Source: an uncultured Bacilli bacterium (lineage in GTDB: Bacteria; Bacillota_I; Bacilli_A; RF39; UBA660). Taken from it: DNA of 41,980 nucleotides. The DNA is taken from the NCBI GenBank assembly GCA_947625085.1, contig CANQMV010000003.1, positions 1 to 41,980 of the forward strand, read 5' to 3'. The notes below the pieces were generated by a model. That model ran no database searches. It was not told where the DNA came from and saw only the letters and a program-made list of their open reading frames with translations. Below, one piece after another: positions 864-26,321 of the stretch (its first letter is position 1; every line of letters starts with the position of its first letter). Position numbers and translations under genes: made by a program.

Positions 864-2192
864 TTAAAAATTATAAGTTTTAACTTCTGGCAATTCTTTT
901 TCTTTAAAATTAATTTTTTCAGATTCTATATTAGAATTTAATTTATAATCAGGAATTAATCTAGTTTTATAAGGAGGTTTTCTTTCAAGTAAAACTATAA
1001 CTTCAAACAATTTCATTGTTTTTAATTCTTCTACTTCAATTAATCTTTCGTGTTTTTCCTTTTCACCACATAATTTACTAATTTCATCCATTGTATATAA
1101 ATCATTACTTCTTAAATAAATGAGATTACTAAAGCATAATCGTATAATATTTATATCATTATATTTTTGTTTTAAATCAGTAAAACTTTTTATAGAACAT
1201 AAGAATCTTATTCCTATACTTCTTGAATAATTAAGAACTTTAGGAAATTCATAAATAGGAGATAATTCATCAAAATCATCTAATATATAATTAACCATAT
1301 CTTTAGAATCTAAATATTTTTTAACATCATATAGTTGATCCAATAAAAGTGCTACTAAAGAATTGGAAGATAAACTATCAGTTTCAACTATAAAAATAGC
1401 AAACTTGTTTTTAAAGATATCTTCAAATGTGTAATCACTTTTGGAAAGTAATTTTGATAAACCTACCCTACACACAATTGGCTTCATTTTATAATTAAAT
1501 ACTGAAATAATACTATTTTTTGTTTCAACAGGTGCATTTAAAGTTCCAGCTAATAGTATATAAATAGGGTCAGTTTTATCTAAACTATTCATTAAATCTA
1601 AACTTTTTTTATTATCATTTAAACTATTAGCCATTAAATAAATACTATTTAAATTTATTTCATCAATAGATGCATTTTTAAATAAATGTAAAACTAGTCC
1701 TTCAAAAAAATCAATAGTTGTCTTAGTCCAATACGGATCAGACTCATTATTATCAGAAAATAAATAGAAACCTATTTTATCAAGTAATTTATATACTGTA
1801 TCAAAATCATCTTTTTTATAAAATTCATAAGGCAAATATAAAGGGTTAAAACAAGTTCCTAATTTTGGTCTTTCAAAATTAAATACATAAGTTTTATATC
1901 CTTCCTCTTTAAGACTTTTAATATTTTTTTCTAACATTTCACCTTTTTTATCAATAACAACCATTGATTCATGAGATTTAATCGTTGTTCTAATAAATGG
2001 TAAAACTATACTTTGTGTTTTACCACTTCCCATAGCTGAAACTAAAAGTGTATGTCCGTCTTTACTATTTACATAAACACTTCCCTTATCATAAATTATT
2101 GGAATTCCATTTTTAAATTCCTTAGCATTTAACTTATTTTCAGTTAAAACATCTTGCATTTCCTTAGTTGTTGCCCATTTGGCAAATTTCAT
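864..2192 (-). CDS. VirD4/TraG-like coupling protein paralog, no N-terminal TM anchor, degenerate ATPase motifs
   Basis: Collinear with ORF 3016-5364: KWATTKEM vs KWCDIKDM, SAMGSGKT vs GSTGSGKT, IDKKGE vs TDPKGE, FNPL vs WNPL, DPYWTKT vs DPFWEKT, ILDDFDEL vs LLDEFANM. Begins directly at the post-TM motif. Confidence 0.85.
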   Translation of the reverse strand: MKFAKWATTKEMQDVLTENKLNAKEFKNGIPIIYDKGSVYVNSKDGHTLLVSAMGSGKTQSIVLPFIRTTIKSHESMVVIDKKGEMLEKNIKSLKEEGYKTYVFNFERPKLGTCFNPLYLPYEFYKKDDFDTVYKLLDKIGFYLFSDNNESDPYWTKTTIDFFEGLVLHLFKNASIDEINLNSIYLMANSLNDNKKSLDLMNSLDKTDPIYILLAGTLNAPVETKNSIISVFNYKMKPIVCRVGLSKLLSKSDYTFEDIFKNKFAIFIVETDSLSSNSLVALLLDQLYDVKKYLDSKDMVNYILDDFDELSPIYEFPKVLNYSRSIGIRFLCSIKSFTDLKQKYNDINIIRLCFSNLIYLRSNDLYTMDEISKLCGEKEKHERLIEVEELKTMKLFEVIVLLERKPPYKTRLIPDYKLNSNIESEKINFKEKELPEVKTYNF

Positions 2193-2248
2193 AATATCAC
2201 CTCTTGATATATAATTAAAGCAGAATTATTGATATTTTTTAAACAATA

Positions 2249-2277
2249 TTGACTTTTTAACTATTTTTTATTAAAAT
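2249..2277 (+). promoter_or_regulatory. Sigma-A-type promoter for the AraC-family gene
   Basis: TTGACT (2249-2254), 17-nt spacer, TAAAAT (2272-2277); AGGTGA RBS before ATG at 2300. Confidence 0.55.
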
Positions 2278-2299
2278 ATGACAATAAAAAGGTGATATT

Positions 2300-2764
2300 A
2301 TGTATTCTAAACCATTAATAATTAACATCTTAATTTTTTTAAATAATAATTTATATCAAAAAATTGAATTAAATTATTTAGAAGAAATGTTTCATTATAA
2401 TAAATTTTATATTATTCGTTTATTTAAAAAAGAAATTGGAATAACCATCAATGATTATCTTAACAGAATGAGAATTTATAATTCCCTAAATGATATTGTA
2501 AATCCAAATTATTCATGTCTAAAAGTTGCTCTTTTATATGGATTCACTAATCTTGAATATTATTCTGAAACTTTTTCTAAAATTATAGGAATCAGTCCTT
2601 TAAAATATAAAAAATTTTATTTAAAAATGGATAATTTAGATAATGAAATAAGAAATAAAATAATTGAAAATGTCATAAATTTATCTGATTTAAAAGACAA
2701 ATGTAATTACTATATAAAAAATATAAAACCTAAAAATACTATTAAAATCAAAAAATTATATTAA
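2300..2764 (+). CDS. AraC/XylS-family transcriptional regulator (DNA-binding domain only)
   Basis: LEEMFHYNKFYIIRLFKKEIGITINDYLNRMRI...VALLYGFTNLEYYSETFSKIIGISPLKYKK matches the double-HTH AraC signature; no N-terminal sensor domain. Confidence 0.85.
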   Translation: MYSKPLIINILIFLNNNLYQKIELNYLEEMFHYNKFYIIRLFKKEIGITINDYLNRMRIYNSLNDIVNPNYSCLKVALLYGFTNLEYYSETFSKIIGISPLKYKKFYLKMDNLDNEIRNKIIENVINLSDLKDKCNYYIKNIKPKNTIKIKKLY

Positions 2765-3015
2765 AAATATTTATTTTCTATCTTTAAACAAATTCCTTAA
2801 TATAATAAATTAAATCGCTATAATCTTTAATTATTTCATTTATCAAAATATCACCTAAAAAAGAGCCTCATTTTGAAGTTCTTTAAGATGATATACAATT
2901 TTTTATACATATATTTATTTAAAATAATATAATTTTATAAATTTTCTTTTTATTTTTAATAATTTATGAGTGCAATTTAGATTTTTTAGCAATTGTTGTT
3001 TCAAAAAAAAGAAGA

Positions 3016-5364
3016 TTATTCATCGAAGAAGTCATCGAAAAATTCATCATCACTAACTTCTTGATATTTATTATCTTCTTTTAAATCCATATTAGGTTTT
3101 ATATTTTCTTTATTAGCTTCTAAAGATTTTTCTTTAATTTTATTAATTAATTCATCAATATTTTGAGGATTAGTATCTTCCTCTAAATATTCACTATCTT
3201 TAGGTGGAACTTGAAAATCATCTTCTTTAAAAGTATCTAAAAAATCTTTAAAATCTGGTTCCTTAGGTTGATTTACATTAATCTTTTCAGTTAAAATATT
3301 AGCATCTGGAACTTGATTATCTAATTTAGGAACTTCACTTGGAATTTGCCCATTATCATTATCAGATGTTAATTGTTCATTTTCTAAATCAACTTTTTGT
3401 TTAGCTTGCTCTTCTTCCTCTGCTAATCGCTTTTCTTCAGCTTCAATTTCAGCAATCTTAGCATCCAAATTTTGTAATATTTTATCTACATCAATTTTTG
3501 ATTCATCATTTGAAGGTGGAAGATTATTATTTTCAAACAAACCTGGAAATGGTGGTGGAAAAGATGAGCCTCCAAAAGGATTTCCGCCATCAAAGCCCCC
3601 AAAGCCTGGAAATGGTGATGAATTAAGAGCATTTTCTTTCTTTTTATTTTTGACAAATTCGCGAATATCAAATGTCTTTACTTCTCTTTTTTCTCTTGGA
3701 GTAATATTAGAAAGAGATGCTAATTTAAATGGTCTTCCCCAACTCATTTTATAGTCAGGAGTTAATTTAGTTTTAAAAGGTGGCATTCTTAACCGTCTAA
3801 TTATAACTTCATTCATTTTCAATTTTTGCAAATCACTAATGGTAATTAATGGTCTAGTTTCTTCTTTTTCTTTTTCGTCTTTTCCAGTTTTAACTTTTAT
3901 TTCGCCACACATTTTACTAATTTCTTCAAGAGCTCTTAACTCAGTTGAAATTAAATAAATCATGTTACCACAGTTGCCTTTAATAGTTTCAGCATTTTGT
4001 TCTCCATAAACTTCATTTAATTGAGCAAAGTTTTGAATAATCATCGTAAATCGCATTAATCTACTTCTAGCTGCAGTTATCATGGTTGTTACATCTTTTA
4101 AAGGTGGCATATTAGCAAACTCATCTAAAAGAAAATTAGTTCTAATTGGTAATTTTCCATCATGAGCTTGAGCAACATCAATTAAAGTTTCATAAATTTG
4201 TTTAATTAAAATGGTTACTAAAGCATGGTAAGTTTTCTTTTCATCTTGAATAACAATAAAAACAGCCGTTTTTTGTTTTCCAATATCTTGAATATCAAAA
4301 TCACTATAGGATAACATTTCTGATAAATTAGCTCGAGAAGCAAAGAGTTTAATTTTTTGTTTGAAAACGGCAATTATACTCATCTTGGTTTCATTTGGAG
4401 CTAGAATAGTACTTGATGCACCAATATATGCAGCTCCATTTGGGTCTTTACTATTAAAATATTCTTTTACATAAGTACTACCACCAATTTTTTCTTCTCC
4501 AACTGTAGTCATTAAACTAATAGTATTTAAATTAATTTCTTCTTCTTTAGCATCTTCAAATAAACCGAGACAAAGTCCTGAAAAGTAATCAGCTGAAGTT
4601 TTTTCCCAAAAAGGGTCCGCATTTTTATTTGATTCATCATACAAAATATTTAAGGCTAAATCATCTAGTAATTCAATAGCTTTATCTTGATTACCATTTT
4701 TCCATAATTTATAAGGTAAACTTAACGGATTCCATGCATTACCTCGAATTGGGTCACGGAAATTTAAAATAATAATCTTATAGCCTTTAGCTCTTAACAT
4801 ATTACTTTTCTTTTCGTATAATTCTCCCTTAGGGTCGGTGATAATCATTGATTCTCCATGTTTTGATAATAATTCAATCATTGGATAAATAATAGCTGTT
4901 GTTTTACCACTTCCGGTTGAACCTATTACTAAATTATGATATTCACTATCATCAACATAAATTTTCTTACCATCATTTATTAAGGCAATTCCAGCATAAT
5001 CTGAATGAACATCAGTTGGTAAAACCAATTTTAGTTGTTTTTTCATATCTTTAATATCACACCATTTTGAATAACCATCGCTATCAGATTTTTTTTCAGT
5101 TGAAATACCAAAGCCCTTATCAAATTCAAAGAAATAACTTTTACAACTAAGTAAAAGAGCTATAAGTGCTACAAAATAAAAAACTAAAGTAGAAGCAATT
5201 AAATCTTTTCTAAAAGCTAGTAAGGGATTTAACCCTGTAAATTCCCCCGTTGAAGTTAAACTTGATAAATTAGAAATGGCAACTGCAACAATATAAAGAA
5301 GTATTAAACAAATAATTAAAAACTTTTTCATATCGTTAACATCAAAACGTATTTTTAATTTCAT
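3016..5364 (-). CDS. virD4: Type IV coupling protein VirD4/TraG with long acidic C-terminal extension
   Basis: Two N-terminal TM segments, Walker A GSTGSGKT, TDPKGE, WNPL, Walker B LLDEFAN, ARSR..IIQNFAQL..YG; about 200-aa tail ending DDEFFDDFFDE. Confidence 0.92.
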   Translation of the reverse strand: MKLKIRFDVNDMKKFLIICLILLYIVAVAISNLSSLTSTGEFTGLNPLLAFRKDLIASTLVFYFVALIALLLSCKSYFFEFDKGFGISTEKKSDSDGYSKWCDIKDMKKQLKLVLPTDVHSDYAGIALINDGKKIYVDDSEYHNLVIGSTGSGKTTAIIYPMIELLSKHGESMIITDPKGELYEKKSNMLRAKGYKIIILNFRDPIRGNAWNPLSLPYKLWKNGNQDKAIELLDDLALNILYDESNKNADPFWEKTSADYFSGLCLGLFEDAKEEEINLNTISLMTTVGEEKIGGSTYVKEYFNSKDPNGAAYIGASSTILAPNETKMSIIAVFKQKIKLFASRANLSEMLSYSDFDIQDIGKQKTAVFIVIQDEKKTYHALVTILIKQIYETLIDVAQAHDGKLPIRTNFLLDEFANMPPLKDVTTMITAARSRLMRFTMIIQNFAQLNEVYGEQNAETIKGNCGNMIYLISTELRALEEISKMCGEIKVKTGKDEKEKEETRPLITISDLQKLKMNEVIIRRLRMPPFKTKLTPDYKMSWGRPFKLASLSNITPREKREVKTFDIREFVKNKKKENALNSSPFPGFGGFDGGNPFGGSSFPPPFPGLFENNNLPPSNDESKIDVDKILQNLDAKIAEIEAEEKRLAEEEEQAKQKVDLENEQLTSDNDNGQIPSEVPKLDNQVPDANILTEKINVNQPKEPDFKDFLDTFKEDDFQVPPKDSEYLEEDTNPQNIDELINKIKEKSLEANKENIKPNMDLKEDNKYQEVSDDEFFDDFFDE

Positions 5365-5382
5365 TTTCTCACCCTTTCAAAA

Positions 5383-6093
5383 TCATGCAACTTTATTATT
5401 GGTTTTGTTTCTTTTTCGTAAATGAAATACGATTAAAACTACTATTAAGCCAATTACACATAATATTGCAATTGATATATACATAACTAAATTATACACA
5501 TATATTTTCGATTTATCAAATGTTAAATTAATTTCTTTATCAAGAGTTTCGGAATTAATATTCCAAGTATAAGTATTAGTCTTTTTATTATAACTATCAG
5601 CATTATTAGAAGTTACAACATAAGGTAATTTAATATTAATATTTAAATTTGAAATAGGATATCTTACATCCGTTTCATCTTCAACATATGGTAAAAAACC
5701 ATTAGTTTTAATCGTAACTAAATTATTATCAGTTGTTACCTTTATATCTTCAAACATTTGGTCTTTAAAAACCGTTGATGCTGCATATTCAGATAAATTA
5801 TTAAATTTTTTTGAAGCTTCAACTCCTGGTTTAGAAATACTTTCAGTTACCATTTGGTAAGAATAATTATTATTTTTTAAAACACTCATTACTTCATCAT
5901 TATCATAAAAACTTTTAACAACCGTTCTTGGAAATTCTCTATAAAAATTATTAAAATACTCAGTTGTTGCCGTTATAAAAACTTTTTCATCAGCTGATAA
6001 ATCTCTTTTAATATTTAAATTATAATTAACATCAGCACAACCACTTAAAAGAAAAGGAATAATTAAAACAAAAATTAGTTTTTTTAATTTCAT
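5383..6093 (-). CDS. Lipoprotein with C-terminal TM helix (LppM-like)
   Basis: MKLKK plus hydrophobic stretch and lipobox LLSGC; C-terminal hydrophobic helix followed by HLRKRNK. The LppM-like resemblance is from pattern recall only. Confidence 0.6.
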   Translation of the reverse strand: MKLKKLIFVLIIPFLLSGCADVNYNLNIKRDLSADEKVFITATTEYFNNFYREFPRTVVKSFYDNDEVMSVLKNNNYSYQMVTESISKPGVEASKKFNNLSEYAASTVFKDQMFEDIKVTTDNNLVTIKTNGFLPYVEDETDVRYPISNLNINIKLPYVVTSNNADSYNKKTNTYTWNINSETLDKEINLTFDKSKIYVYNLVMYISIAILCVIGLIVVLIVFHLRKRNKTNNKVA

Positions 6094-6097
6094 CTTC

Positions 6098-8641
6098 TTA
6101 CCTCCTTGAAAGAACTACAAATGATTGACTAGCATTAGCAACACTTACTATATCACTTTCAAAGTCAGCCCAATAATTATCACGTGATGAACTTTTTGAA
6201 CCAGGGTCCCATACTAATACCTTGTTTCTTTCATCCTCCGTTTTAACTCCAACTAAGGCTATATAATGTCCACTTGAAGTTTTATATCTTTTAGCATTAG
6301 GAGCAATTCTTGCAACAACAACACTATTTCCAGTTGCAAGGTCACTAAGCAATTTATTAAGACCATTTTTATCATTTTTTAAAACCGTATAAGATGATAA
6401 ATTATAAAGACTAGCAGCAGATACTGCATAACTTGACCTATCACCATTGCATCGTCCAGCACTTTTTAATTTTTGACTTATTTCAAGCGGGTCATGTCTT
6501 TGATTAGTTAATAAAGAAACTGCAATTGCTGTTGATGATACACTACAACCTCTTGCAGAAATAGTACCACCTTCACAAAAACTATTGCTGCCTTTATAAT
6601 CAGATTGATAAAAATGAAAATCTTCGTTTAATTTAATACTTCCTTCATAATCTTCTTCGGTTTCAAAGTATAAACCTTCTTTGATATTGATAATATCAAA
6701 ATCAATCGCTGAAAAATATTTATTTAAAATTTCAATATAAGTCATACCATTTTTAGCATCATTCATTGCTTCAACTTGAGGTAAAGCATACCCTGGAACA
6801 TAATTATCGTTAGAAGTATTGTTATAATGATGTAAACTTTGTACATCTTTACTTCCAGTAAAAGTTTCTGGGGTTACGCCTTTTTTTACAATAACATCAC
6901 CAAATATTTCTCCAATTATTTCATCCAAAAAAGCATTTTGTTCTTCTGTTAAAGGTCTATGAGGAGTTACGCCTGAAAAACGATTAGTTCCAGTATAAGC
7001 GGTACCATATTTATGATTTCCATAAAAATATTGACAACCATAATGAGGGTCACAAGTTACTTGTCTGCAATTGCCAGTTGGAAAATAAAATTCCCCCGTT
7101 TTTAAATCAAAACCACTTTTGGAATCATTTAACATAAACGATAAGGCAACAATAGAAAGGGCCTTAATTCCTTCACGATACTCATCTTTCATGTAACTTT
7201 GAACTTCTCCCATTATAGTCCCTTTTATATAATCAGTTAAATTAAGAAAAGTTGGATATTCTGTTCCTTCATTAGTTAAGGGATTATTATAAACTGTCAA
7301 ACCATTTAAAATTTTTATTGTATAAGGGGTAAAACAAGTTTGTAAATAAACTGCACCTGAATCTGATACAAAATTAGAACTAACTGCTTTATCCTCAAAC
7401 ATATTTCTTGCAATATCTGCAAAATTATAAATATTATTTAATAAATTTCTTTTTGAATTTTCATCATTATTAACTAAAAATTCACTGTAATATGAAGTTA
7501 AAAAATCACTCTCTAATAAATTATTATAAGTTACCCCATCTATTTCTATATCTGTTTTATAAGTATTATTTTCATCTTTTTTTATCATTAAAGAGGCAAC
7601 TACGCCAATTTTTTTAGTTGCTGAAGTATAATCAATAGTTGTTCCCTCAGAAGTTTCTGTTTCAGTAGAATTATTTTCAGAGCCTGCTGTTGGTTCTTTA
7701 TTTAAACTATCTAAAGCATTTTCTAAGTCTGCATCTGTTATTCCTGAATCAGTTGAAAACAAATCATCTATTGGTTTATTCATATAACGATATACTAAAA
7801 TTGATTGTAATAAATATTTATCTATAGTAACTCCATATTTTTCTTTATAGTCATTAATTGTTTCTTCAATCTTATCATAAAATTCTTTTTCTAACTTTTG
7901 TCTTTCCGGGTCAGACTCTGAAAAAATATATGAAGAATTTTCAGTATTATTATATACTAAGTCAACAAAAAATTGATAAATTGCTATAAAGGGGCTAAAA
8001 AAATTTACGACTAAAATAATAACAAGAATAGCACCGATAATGGGAATAATTATAGGTGAAATCAAAGAAATAATTTTAACTATTCGACTAACTTTACCAA
8101 TATTTTTGACAATATCATTAGCTTCCGTATCATTTTCTTCTGTTACTGAATCAGTAGTTTCAGAATCAGTAGTATTGTTATTGCTATCATTAGTAGTTGA
8201 AGCTAAATTACTTTCATTTAAAAACCGATTTCTAAGCGATTGATTTTGATGTCTATTTTTTAAAGCCTCCGGAACATCAGAAGTTTGGTTAGAAAGATTA
8301 GAGTTTAATGGTTGACTTCTTCTTGGAAGATTTAAATTTCTATTATTTAAAGTACCACTTCCACTACTTTTATCTATTACATTAGAAGCAACGTCAACTG
8401 CTCCACTATCATTAAGTTTTTTATTTAATTTATTTGCAATTGGAACTTTGGAAATAGCTTCTCCTACCCCTTGTTCAATTTTCTGCCCTATTTTAGTTTG
8501 AGAAATTTTATCATAAGCAATATTTCCAAGTGTTCCTCCAAAGTAAGTAGCTGCTGCTTTACCAGCAGTATGAGCCGTATTAGTACCAGCTTGCTCTAAT
8601 TTTTGTTTTTCTTCTTTTTCATCTTCATTCATACGACTCAC
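6098..8641 (-). CDS. Membrane-anchored SpoIID/LytB-like plus peptidase C39-like cell-wall hydrolase (VirB1 analogue)
   Basis: TM near aa 190-225. LTDYIKGTIMGEV..EGIKALSIVALSF and ALPQVEAMNDAKNGMTYIEILNKYF match SpoIID/LytB motifs. C-terminal YQSD...RGCSVSSTAIAVS...SGHYIALVG...VWDPG gives the Q-C-H-D C39-like catalytic set. Confidence 0.7.
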   Translation of the reverse strand: MSRMNEDEKEEKQKLEQAGTNTAHTAGKAAATYFGGTLGNIAYDKISQTKIGQKIEQGVGEAISKVPIANKLNKKLNDSGAVDVASNVIDKSSGSGTLNNRNLNLPRRSQPLNSNLSNQTSDVPEALKNRHQNQSLRNRFLNESNLASTTNDSNNNTTDSETTDSVTEENDTEANDIVKNIGKVSRIVKIISLISPIIIPIIGAILVIILVVNFFSPFIAIYQFFVDLVYNNTENSSYIFSESDPERQKLEKEFYDKIEETINDYKEKYGVTIDKYLLQSILVYRYMNKPIDDLFSTDSGITDADLENALDSLNKEPTAGSENNSTETETSEGTTIDYTSATKKIGVVASLMIKKDENNTYKTDIEIDGVTYNNLLESDFLTSYYSEFLVNNDENSKRNLLNNIYNFADIARNMFEDKAVSSNFVSDSGAVYLQTCFTPYTIKILNGLTVYNNPLTNEGTEYPTFLNLTDYIKGTIMGEVQSYMKDEYREGIKALSIVALSFMLNDSKSGFDLKTGEFYFPTGNCRQVTCDPHYGCQYFYGNHKYGTAYTGTNRFSGVTPHRPLTEEQNAFLDEIIGEIFGDVIVKKGVTPETFTGSKDVQSLHHYNNTSNDNYVPGYALPQVEAMNDAKNGMTYIEILNKYFSAIDFDIINIKEGLYFETEEDYEGSIKLNEDFHFYQSDYKGSNSFCEGGTISARGCSVSSTAIAVSLLTNQRHDPLEISQKLKSAGRCNGDRSSYAVSAASLYNLSSYTVLKNDKNGLNKLLSDLATGNSVVVARIAPNAKRYKTSSGHYIALVGVKTEDERNKVLVWDPGSKSSSRDNYWADFESDIVSVANASQSFVVLSRR

Positions 8642-8662
8642 CTCTTAACTACTTTAATTTTT

Positions 8663-25011: not shown

Positions 25012-25077
25012 TTTAATCCTACTTTCTATATTAATTATACTATCATTAAAAAAAAATAACAAGAATTTCCTTGTTAT

Positions 25078-25368
25078 TTAATGTCTAATTTTATTTTTCG
25101 TTAATCTTTTACGATTGCTACTTTCAAAGATAGCCCTATCTGGTGTAATAGCTTCTGGAATAATTCCATCATAATCAGAATTTCTAAATATATAACGAAA
25201 TAGCCCTGGTCTTTTTCTCCATAAACCATCATTTCCTAAAAGATAGGCTTCTTTTCGGTTTAAAACCATTAGATAACTTTCTGTTTCTCCTTGAGGAATT
25301 TTATAATATTCAACCAATATAGTATCTATGCCGTCTTTATTATTATCATTAATATTTAAATCTTGCAT
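25078..25368 (-). CDS. Small hypothetical protein, candidate immunity/antitoxin for the upstream RelA-like protein
   Basis: Starts 5 bp after the RelA-like stop; YY...W...EAITPDRA resembles the small YY..W..(E)ITEEEA proteins that follow RelA-like polymorphic toxins (pattern recall). Confidence 0.5.
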   Translation of the reverse strand: MQDLNINDNNKDGIDTILVEYYKIPQGETESYLMVLNRKEAYLLGNDGLWRKRPGLFRYIFRNSDYDGIIPEAITPDRAIFESSNRKRLTKNKIRH

Positions 25369-25373
25369 ACTAC

Positions 25374-26279
25374 TTACCTCCTTTTTTCATTTGCAACAAA
25401 TCTATAATCACAAGCTTTTAAACTTTCGGTATCCGGTGGAACGATTGTCGATTGTAAAAACGTTCGATATCTTTCTAATCTAAGTATCCATTCTAATTCT
25501 AATGAAGCATCTCTTAAAACTTTATATAAATCTCTTGTCGAGCCTTCTTTTATTTGATGTTCCATTGGCGTATGAAATTGAATTTCAAAAACATCCAGAT
25601 TATTTGGACAAACAATTTTAGCATTTATTCCTTGACAACCAACTTTCATCCATTTATCTTTATTTTCAGAAGTCCAAAAATTACTTGCATCAACCCAATG
25701 ATTTTTTAAATCTATCTGATAACCAAGACTTGCTAATTGTTGTAAAATTTTATCAACTATATCTAAATATATATCATCATGAATAATTACAGTATAACGA
25801 ATTCCATCTCTAATCTTTGAGCCTGACATATTATAATCATCATTATAAAAAAGATTAGCATCATGAATTATTTTTCTTTTTAAACTATCTATACTTTTAA
25901 TAGTATTATTTTTTTTATTAGGGGTAACTTCAAAATCAGATATATTATAACCTAAAAGTTCAACTCCAACTCCTAATGATGAAATTATTTCTTTTAAAGT
26001 CTTAGTAATACTTGGAGCTACTTCCGAAGAACGATTATAAATTCGCAAAGCCCAATTGGTTACCGTAACTTTATCTATATCTGATAAACAGTCATATGCA
26101 CTTTCTCCTTCTTTAAAATCTGCGGAATGTAGGTATTCATCTATAAATCGAAGTATTTCAATGTACTCTTCCTTAGAAAATTTTAATTCATCTGGAACTA
26201 ACGATAAATTTAAAGAAGGTTTTTGATTTAACAACCAGTTATCACTCACACTATCACTCATTTCCTTGACATTTATCAC
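25374..26279 (-). CDS. RelA/SpoT-like nucleotidyltransferase domain protein (small alarmone synthetase/toxin-like)
   Basis: IKSIDSLKRK (Syn1), RDGIRYT (Syn2 Asp), KNHW..CQGIN (Syn3 variant), FEIQFHT (Syn4 Glu-x-Gln). No hydrolase or regulatory domains. Confidence 0.75.
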   Translation of the reverse strand: MINVKEMSDSVSDNWLLNQKPSLNLSLVPDELKFSKEEYIEILRFIDEYLHSADFKEGESAYDCLSDIDKVTVTNWALRIYNRSSEVAPSITKTLKEIISSLGVGVELLGYNISDFEVTPNKKNNTIKSIDSLKRKIIHDANLFYNDDYNMSGSKIRDGIRYTVIIHDDIYLDIVDKILQQLASLGYQIDLKNHWVDASNFWTSENKDKWMKVGCQGINAKIVCPNNLDVFEIQFHTPMEHQIKEGSTRDLYKVLRDASLELEWILRLERYRTFLQSTIVPPDTESLKACDYRFVANEKRR

Positions 26280-26321
26280 TTATATGATATATTAAATTTA
26301 AATAATTGTAAAGAGGTATTT

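Follow-up and report, generated by a model that had tools for sequence, protein, structure and literature searches.

The question raised by this locus is what a RelA/SpoT-like enzyme and a small protein encoded directly behind it do in the chromosome of a gut bacterium with a small genome. The window, that is, the whole stretch of DNA that was analyzed (41,980 nt; positions 1 to 41,980 of contig CANQMV010000003.1), belongs to an uncultured small-genome member of the Bacilli whose metagenome-assembled genome comprises 1.19 Mb in 96 contigs. Enzymes of the toxic small alarmone synthetase (toxSAS) kind are known as secreted weapons, as phage cargo and as mobile toxin-antitoxin modules. The original prediction, made from the letters of the window, had read the pair either as an effector and immunity protein for the resident type IV secretion system (T4SS) or as a toxin-antitoxin or defense module. 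Part of this interpretation was upheld, namely a toxSAS-type enzyme with a co-conserved partner, while the tie to the T4SS and a recent insertion of the pair were not. The reading that we put first, and in which we have about even confidence, is that the pair is a chromosomally fixed, cytoplasmic toxSAS toxin-antidote module. A role as a toxin-antitoxin or abortive-infection switch is favored over those of a domesticated alarmone circuit and an exported effector.

Both open reading frames (ORFs) were found where they had been placed, on the minus strand and with an intergenic gap of 5 nt. The larger protein contains all of the motifs that had been listed (IKSIDSLKRKI, DGIRYT, KNHW, QGIN and FEIQFHT), and profile and fold matches confirmed it as a synthetase-only RelA/SpoT-fold enzyme of the toxSAS/exported-alarmone-synthetase clade. 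A search of the PDB with the single sequence returned one match only, SaEAS, an alarmone synthetase exported by Streptomyces albidoflavus (PDB 8VX3; Ahmad et al. 2025, PMC12691689), for which the NCBI family name is 'ATP nucleotide 3'-pyrophosphokinase'. A profile built from 23 orthologues matched 8VX3 at an E value of 3.6e-23 and Tas1 weakly. When the AlphaFold2 (AF2) model of the enzyme (pLDDT 86) was compared with known structures by Foldseek, 8VX3 ranked first (E 3e-8, probability 1.0, TM 0.72-0.75) and Tas1 (6OX6) second (E 2.5e-5), followed by Rel, RelP, RelQ, SpoT and FaRel2. The SYNTH fold of the model, a central antiparallel beta-sheet flanked by helices, matched 8VX3, 6OX6, Rel, RelP, RelQ and SpoT with probabilities of 0.9-1.0; FaRel2 was found at rank 16 (E 0.05) and was not recovered by the sequence profile.

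Standard family models were of limited use. No Pfam model matched the enzyme at E <= 0.1, including RelA_SpoT (PF04607), which does match both long RelA/SpoT homologues (RSH) of the same genome, and PADLOC matched neither the enzyme nor the partner. Matches in NCBIfam and PHROGs were limited to the Rel-like C termini of XopAD (5.6e-11) and of phage MuF proteins (2.4e-14). Exported alarmone synthetase domains have been described in both, and it was through iterative profile searches that the divergent Apk1/SaEAS clade was delimited (PMC12691689). An extra N-terminal region had been predicted and is real, but it spans about 65 residues and not about 120, the SaEAS-like fold starting near residue 67-78. 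Residues 1-30 are predicted to be disordered, and the extension is missing from the shorter orthologues and is not conserved genus-wide. The database gene model begins at GTG 26249 and gives a protein of 291 aa, as against 301 aa for the ORF.

The donor site was scored on the Syn1 basic helix of the RxKxxxSxxxK type, the Mg-binding Asp in DxxxR and the ExQ of Syn4. This donor-site and catalytic set (K128, S132, K134-K136, D158, R161, E232 and Q234) was invariant or nearly so among the 23 orthologues, in which the strictly invariant positions were K128, K136, D158, R161, T163, G217, E232, Q234, H236, K244, Y252 and R256. Residues D158, R161, N219, E232 and Q234 align with D121, R124, N169, E182 and Q184 of SaEAS, D121 being the position of the D121A substitution in the crystal. 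The enzyme is acidic, with an isoelectric point (pI) of 5.3 and a net charge of -9 (family median pI, 5.8). It most likely makes (p)ppApp and perhaps (p)ppGpp as well.

The second ORF, of 96 aa, had been proposed as a tightly linked partner, and it is a genuine, co-conserved one: 22 of the 23 genus genomes have it, in each case right behind the toxin gene, and it is coupled through a Shine-Dalgarno (SD) sequence and diverges in step with the toxin (r 0.74). In all 22 toxin-bearing genomes of the genus, the small gene follows the toxin gene at a distance of 0-10 nt or overlaps it, no orphan copies occur in the genus, and an adjacent partner was also found at three loci outside it (L047, L048 and L089). 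Partners are 74-112 aa long, and those with a tandem duplication of the domain have 137-190 aa; this duplication arose in several toxin subclades, and the partner types follow the toxin subclades. A shared pattern, YY(K/R) ... W ... (Y/F)xxMFxDxD ... EI, runs through these partners. The AF2 model (pLDDT 82) shows a beta-rich domain in which four strands form a meander, with short helices and, at the C terminus, a long one.

No match to the partner was obtained in Pfam or PHROGs, its profile matched nothing in the PDB below E 0.5, and its model had no Foldseek match in the PDB at E <= 0.001, with Tis1 (6OX6 chain B) and ATfaRel2/pseudo-Zn-finger domain (pZFD) structures (8PU3 and 7ZTB) not among the top 50. 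Comparison of the model with the viral structures of BFVD likewise gave no significant match. A word-based homologue search returned only the partner itself, and the family surfaced in an exhaustive profile search of 1.84 billion cluster representatives, which yielded 49 representatives. Where the enzyme has relatives in Streptomyces, Clostridium or Lachnospiraceae, no member of the family was found next to them. Elsewhere in metagenomes, the domain is fused to an HD domain, a GNAT acetyltransferase, a DUF6709 membrane region, an SseB-like domain and several N-terminal modules of unknown type (non-HD fusions in P0039, P0054, P0057, P0020 and P0033). The GNAT fusion follows an ftsW/rodA gene, and its 2.5-kb contig carries no toxSAS. 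The partner domain may have uses beyond this toxin.

Expression of the two proteins is linked through the end of the toxin gene. The final toxin codons, AAA-AGG-AGG (K-R-R), form a canonical SD sequence 8 nt before the partner ATG (stop codon plus the gap), and AGGAGG or GGAGG occurs at the same spot in the last toxin codons of nearly all orthologues. The partner is thus translated from the same mRNA through an SD sequence within the last toxin codons. Both proteins had been noted to end in basic tails, which was considered odd for a pure immunity protein. That of the toxin is no protein oddity, because its K-R-R is the SD sequence of the partner read in frame. Many partners also end in a conserved basic tail (KKMTR or KKLSKK; NKIRH here, at 25081-25095), and this one is not derived from an SD sequence because ftsK begins 50-80 nt further on; it may reflect either a function of the protein or a DNA signal that is conserved ahead of ftsK.

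The distribution of the pair was examined in genomes of the genus and in other genera of the family; relatives come from rabbit, ruminant and human gut. The enzyme was present in 22 of the 23 genus genomes, with intact frames in all 22, and the lone exception was a genome that is 66% complete; the partner was present in the same 22. Outside the genus, the enzyme was found in none of 38 genera in a first sample and in 3 of 81 family genera in a wider one, and the pair was nearly absent among roughly 100 sampled sister genera. The order DUF192/enzyme/partner/ftsK is kept in nearly all species of the genus. Two loci depart from it, one following rplQ (L005) and the other without ftsK downstream (L007). 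Insertion of the pair upstream of ftsK had been suggested, but as a recent event this does not hold, the pair being syntenic, mostly vertically inherited and fixed in the genus. The toxin tree largely agrees with the PolA tree, and one clade conflicts with it: the toxins of G014 (L028) and G019 (L029) group together with support of 100/99, and PolA puts these species far apart, which suggests one putative cassette exchange at the conserved locus. A comparison with an empty site failed to define the ancestral one, since both the pair and DUF192 are missing from the 1.5 kb 5' of ftsK in 13 sister genera.

Within the genus, toxin sequences were on average 45% identical in pairwise comparison and partner sequences 32%; the corresponding means were 60% (DUF192), 72% (N-terminal part of FtsK) and 74% (PolA). 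The correlation between toxin and partner identities noted above was retained when PolA was taken into account (partial r 0.73), and that between toxin and PolA was 0.51. In close species pairs, the toxin had dN/dS values of 0.13-0.23 and the partner values of 0.09-0.44. Although they evolve fast, both genes are under purifying selection. Overall, the identities, the toxin-partner correlation and the dN/dS values indicated that both genes are functional, fast-evolving and co-diverging.

One active-site position differs from that in other RSH enzymes. Replacement of the Syn3 Tyr by Cys had been predicted and was confirmed, since the residue before QGIN is Cys215 (VGCQGIN), which in alignments takes the place of the G-loop Tyr in SaEAS (GYKGLN) and Tas1 (GYSGVN). 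The aromatic residue that stacks on the acceptor base is therefore missing from the window enzyme. Y, C and F alternate at this position within the genus, and at least 7 switches were counted among 20 species. Tyr-to-Phe substitution at the G-loop has been used experimentally to cripple FaRel2, PhRel2 and FaRel (PMC11782079). With Cys in place of the acceptor-stacking Tyr, the enzyme may possibly have an altered specificity, as had been proposed. The toxin subclade of the window also has a conserved 15-residue Trp/Phe-rich insertion, HWVDxxxFWxxENKxxW, directly before the G-loop (25650-25700, residues ~194-210) and a second insertion past the first strand (residues ~109-125); neither is present in other subclades or in SaEAS.

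The features of the locus are collected in Table 1.

Table 1. Features of the two-gene unit, with positions in the window
Feature	Positions	Strand	Basis
toxSAS-like pyrophosphokinase gene	25374..26279	-	ORF list; 301 aa from GTG
SYNTH (RelA/SpoT synthetase-fold) domain, residues ~67-290	25410..26081	-	AF2 secondary structure; Foldseek matches 8VX3 and 6OX6; invariant columns
Cys215 codon, G-loop Tyr position	25635..25637	-	VGCQGIN; alignment to GYKGLN (SaEAS) and GYSGVN (Tas1)
Partner Shine-Dalgarno sequence AAAGGAGG	25377..25384	-	Within the toxin's final K-R-R codons
Partner gene, 96 aa, presumed inhibitor	25078..25368	-	ORF list; AF2 pLDDT 82
AT-rich hairpin and U8-9 run	25048..25077	-	Immediately 3' of the partner stop codon
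Promoter-like TTTACA-17-TATCAT, 5' of the toxin gene	26284..26312	-	Consensus match only

The pair is flanked by ftsK downstream and by a divergent DUF192 gene upstream, and the absence of phage context that had been reported was borne out. The window has a G+C content of ~25%. The promoter-like site lies in the 42-72 nt that separate the toxin gene from the DUF192 gene, and such sites are not more numerous in the region than in shuffled sequences; another promoter-like site, for ftsK, is located beyond the hairpin. The hairpin, read from the sequence and then folded, has a free energy of -9 kcal/mol (z -2.8), and a GC-demanding terminator scanner called no terminator at the pair. On this weak evidence, the hairpin and U-run are probably a weak intrinsic terminator that closes the two-gene unit before ftsK. 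Together, the promoter-like site and the hairpin with its U-run suggest that the pair may be its own transcription unit.

A connection of the partner domain with (p)ppApp emerged from its fusions and genomic neighbors elsewhere. Aph1 hydrolyzes (p)ppApp and not (p)ppGpp, and in phage Apk2 modules it adjoins a Tis1-like structural immunity protein (PMC10083569). In the fusion of the partner domain to an HD domain (P0060), the latter matches Aph1 (7SMG) at 9e-30. Furthermore, three metagenome contigs (L086-88) encode, in this order, a toxSAS protein of at least 1358 aa (E 1e-46 for its toxSAS domain), a 92-aa gene, a 78-aa partner-domain gene and a 143-aa Aph1-type gene (5e-33 to 7SMG). The partner domain takes the slot that is held by the Tis1-like protein in Apk2 modules.

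Within the genus, an Aph1-like gene was found in 22 of 23 genomes and is unlinked to the pair. That of the window genome (G000:C16, L123 4973-5533, minus strand) encodes 186 aa with the HD motif retained and a match to 7SMG (E 2.4e-20), and there is an overlap of 7 nt between it and the start of serS; among five species checked, the four others also have it directly 5' of serS. Aph1-like genes occurred in 19 of the 81 family genera (~20% of sister genera), and in the two toxSAS-bearing sister genera an Aph1-type gene lies right beside the toxSAS gene. In one of them (G080:C9, L124), a 244-aa toxSAS from the clade of the window enzyme (3820-4554) is followed after 18 nt by a 147-aa Aph1-type hydrolase (4573-5016). 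The hydrolase replaces the small partner in this module, which sits just past rpmF, again a housekeeping neighborhood; it is a hydrolase-only antidote version of the module.

For a cytoplasmic toxin-antidote module, the following mechanism is proposed. ATP-Mg would be bound in the donor site by the Syn1 basic helix (K128/K134-K136), Asp158, Arg161, Glu232 and Gln234, and its beta-gamma pyrophosphate would be moved onto the 3'-OH of a purine nucleotide. At high flux, ATP would be drained and growth would stop. The partner would bind the enzyme stoichiometrically and block it, a role comparable to the 'structural immunity' that Tis1-like proteins provide for Apk1 and Apk2, although with an unrelated fold. 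Any (p)ppApp that escaped this control would probably be degraded by the serS-linked Aph1-type hydrolase. If the partner were lost or proteolyzed, or if the system were triggered, for example by phage infection or stress, the enzyme would be freed and the cell would arrest.

Several points weigh against such a module. Toxin-first operon order is commoner for effector-immunity pairs. All of the nearest characterized relatives are exported enzymes, namely SaEAS, forms fused to WXG and giant multi-toxin proteins. It is unusual for a selfish toxin-antitoxin or defense module to be kept by vertical descent at a housekeeping locus throughout a genus, and this fits a domesticated role equally well. 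Finally, the G-loop Tyr is replaced and its Phe variant cripples toxSAS enzymes, so the enzyme could be weak or could take another acceptor.

The best placed of the alternatives, which we nevertheless regard as unlikely, is a domesticated (p)ppApp circuit in which the enzyme is a regulated source of adenosine alarmone, the partner a reversible regulator and the serS-linked Aph1-like hydrolase the off-switch. The three genes all belong to the core of the genus and occupy fixed housekeeping loci, inheritance is mostly vertical, and both genes of the pair are under purifying selection. The repeated replacement of the acceptor Tyr, which is attenuating in toxSAS (PMC11782079), fits tuning to a sub-lethal output, and the authors of the Aph1 study have proposed unexplored physiological roles of (p)ppApp (PMC10083569). 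Moreover, the genus has no small alarmone synthetase of the RelP/RelQ type and only two long RSH proteins. However, toxin and partner diverge far faster than DUF192, FtsK and PolA, a pattern of conflict genes and not of a housekeeping regulator. The partner, furthermore, has been tandemly duplicated repeatedly, its family otherwise sits in toxin cassettes, and Aph1-like genes are found without the synthetase in ~20% of sister genera. The two RSH proteins of the window genome are one of 699 aa whose hydrolase region lacks the HD motif (G000:C5, L008 811-2910) and a short 481-aa HD+SYNTH+TGS form with the HD motif intact (G000:C24, L009 1090-2535, minus strand); an RSH pair of ~700 aa and ~485 aa recurs across the genus. 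The idea that the toxSAS pair substitutes for the missing RelP/RelQ was not supported, no clear pattern being seen in the few sister genera sampled.

Next comes an exported antibacterial effector with its immunity protein, delivered by the T4SS or another contact-dependent route into competing gut bacteria, to which we give rather little credence. The window does encode VirD4- and VirB4-like proteins, so the resident T4SS of the original prediction exists, and VirD4/VirB4 are core to the genus and family. The closest relatives of the enzyme are exported or secretion-linked (SaEAS, WXG100-fused proteins of 510 aa, XopAD and MuF), and giant proteins of the same genus end in a toxSAS domain, one of them with an ADP-ribosyltransferase domain. 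The order of effector then immunity gene, combined with fast co-diversification, is typical of such pairs, and the clash of G014 and G019 with the PolA tree suggests exchange. Against this, the tie of the pair to the T4SS was not borne out. A VirD4 orthologue (46-66% identity) is present in 23 of 23 genus genomes and the coupling protein in 79 of 81 family genera, compared with toxSAS in 3 of 81; VirD4 is core to genus and family, so its co-occurrence with the pair is uninformative, and linkage was rejected as an argument. In several genomes, the T4SS genes and the pair are on different contigs, and their linkage is not conserved. The enzyme has no signal peptide and no hydrophobic N terminus or segment (maximum KD19, 1.09), and Pfam and NCBIfam recognized no WXG/LXG, MuF, PAAR/Rhs, XopAD repeat or DUF4157 trafficking domain. 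Its short N-terminal extension is disordered in part and lacks conservation within the genus, its basic C terminus is accounted for by the SD sequence, and orphan immunity copies are lacking in the genus.

The T4SS region of the window extends over 864-13632 and includes VirD4 (3016-5364), a C39-like protein (6098-8641) and a VirB4-like protein (8663-10450). Its coupling protein is not on a sporadic mobile element, and the T4SS is vertically inherited in this family of gut Bacilli with 0.5-1.5-Mb genomes. The giant proteins that end in a toxSAS domain are one of at least 1737 aa (G008:C36, L115 5952-11165, minus strand) and one of 3479 aa (G013:C9, L114 9360-19799, minus strand). Two further domains are present in the first of them, one transglutaminase/DUF553-like and the other an ADP-ribosyltransferase exoenzyme domain (E 1.9e-30). 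Neither giant protein is followed by a partner-family gene; the genes downstream encode 266-304 aa.

A translation-targeting toxSAS that modifies tRNA is improbable. The replaced Tyr and the 15-aa insertion by the G-loop in the subclade of the window suggest a remodeled acceptor site, and bicistronic toxSAS toxin-antitoxin systems of Firmicutes, such as FaRel2 of Coprobacillus, target tRNA (PMC11782079). However, FaRel2 lies far below SaEAS and Tas1 by fold (E 0.05 versus 3e-8) and was missed by the sequence profile, and the partner has no similarity to pZFD antitoxins. The tRNA recognition of FaRel2 maps to its N-terminal region, and the two toxSAS classes show contrasts in active-site charge (PMC11782079); a tRNA binder would be expected to have a net positive charge, which the window enzyme, with its pI of 5.3, does not. 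A tRNA-modifying activity, which had been mentioned as a possibility, is therefore less likely than nucleotide pyrophosphorylation because the protein is acidic, SaEAS and Tas1 are its closest relatives and the partner domain travels with the (p)ppApp-specific Aph1. It is very improbable that the enzyme is a catalytically dead or decaying relic retained for position alone, for although its acceptor-stacking Tyr is Cys and it has no Pfam RelA_SpoT match, its donor-site and metal-binding residues are invariant in 23 orthologues, the frames are intact in 22 genomes with dN/dS of 0.13-0.23, and the partner is kept in Tyr-type and Cys-type species alike.

To our knowledge, the protein inhibitors of toxSAS enzymes fall into two classes, Tis1-like proteins for (p)ppApp makers and pZFD proteins for tRNA modifiers. 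The partner is predicted to represent a third, undescribed inhibitor family, which is rare and is tied by fusion and neighborhood to Aph1 hydrolases. A stable, vertically inherited core pair in a genus with ~1.2-Mb genomes, with a matching core hydrolase elsewhere in the chromosome, raises the question of a physiological role of (p)ppApp. If the pair were a domesticated circuit, (p)ppApp would be a physiological second messenger here and not a weapon alone, and Tyr/Cys switching would tune its output. The genus also offers a natural Tyr/Cys/Phe series at the very residue that experimenters mutate to disarm these enzymes. Should enzyme and partner act as predicted, structural studies would gain a compact new toxin-inhibitor pair, and the biology of (p)ppApp a test bed.

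Comparison with known systems places the favored toxin-antidote module among them as follows. SaEAS is the best match of the enzyme by both sequence and fold (E 3.6e-23; TM 0.75) and shares its SYNTH core and catalytic residues. Unlike SaEAS, which has a Sec signal peptide and no immunity gene, the window enzyme has no signal peptide and an obligate coupled partner, and it differs further by the Cys at the G-loop Tyr, the extra N-terminal residues and the two insertions. Apk1/Tas1-Tis1, from the type VI secretion system (T6SS) of Pseudomonas aeruginosa (6OX6), belongs to the same enzyme clade (Foldseek E 2.5e-5) and comprises a toxic pyrophosphokinase that is neutralized by a small protein encoded directly downstream, as is proposed by analogy for the window pair. 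In contrast to it, the window pair has no PAAR or T6SS context, no similarity to Tis1 is detectable in the sequence or fold of its partner, and it is vertically fixed in the genus and not carried in a secretion-system island.

The phage modules of MuF-Apk2, Tis1-like protein and Aph1 and the FaRel tricistron (SAH - FaRel - Tis1-like+pZFD) resemble the present system in combining a synthetase, a structural inhibitor and a (p)ppApp hydrolase, the last two of which are predicted here (PMC10083569, PMC11782079, PMC7229694). Relatives of the partner domain are found in the Tis1 slot by Aph1-type genes (L086-88) or fused to such a domain (P0060). The window genome differs from these systems in that its hydrolase is unlinked and lies 5' of serS, its pair has no MuF or phage context and its inhibitor belongs to a different family. 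With FaRel2/ATfaRel2, PhRel2 and CapRel, the pair shares the two-gene or fused organization of cytoplasmic toxSAS toxin-antitoxin systems in Firmicutes and phages. Those systems, however, target the CCA end of tRNA and are neutralized by a pseudo-Zn-finger domain at the donor site, their fold match to the window enzyme is much weaker (E 0.05), and the window enzyme is acidic. Overall, a toxSAS with a partner is a known type of system, and what is new here is the inhibitor family, the genus-wide fixation and the switching of the acceptor site.

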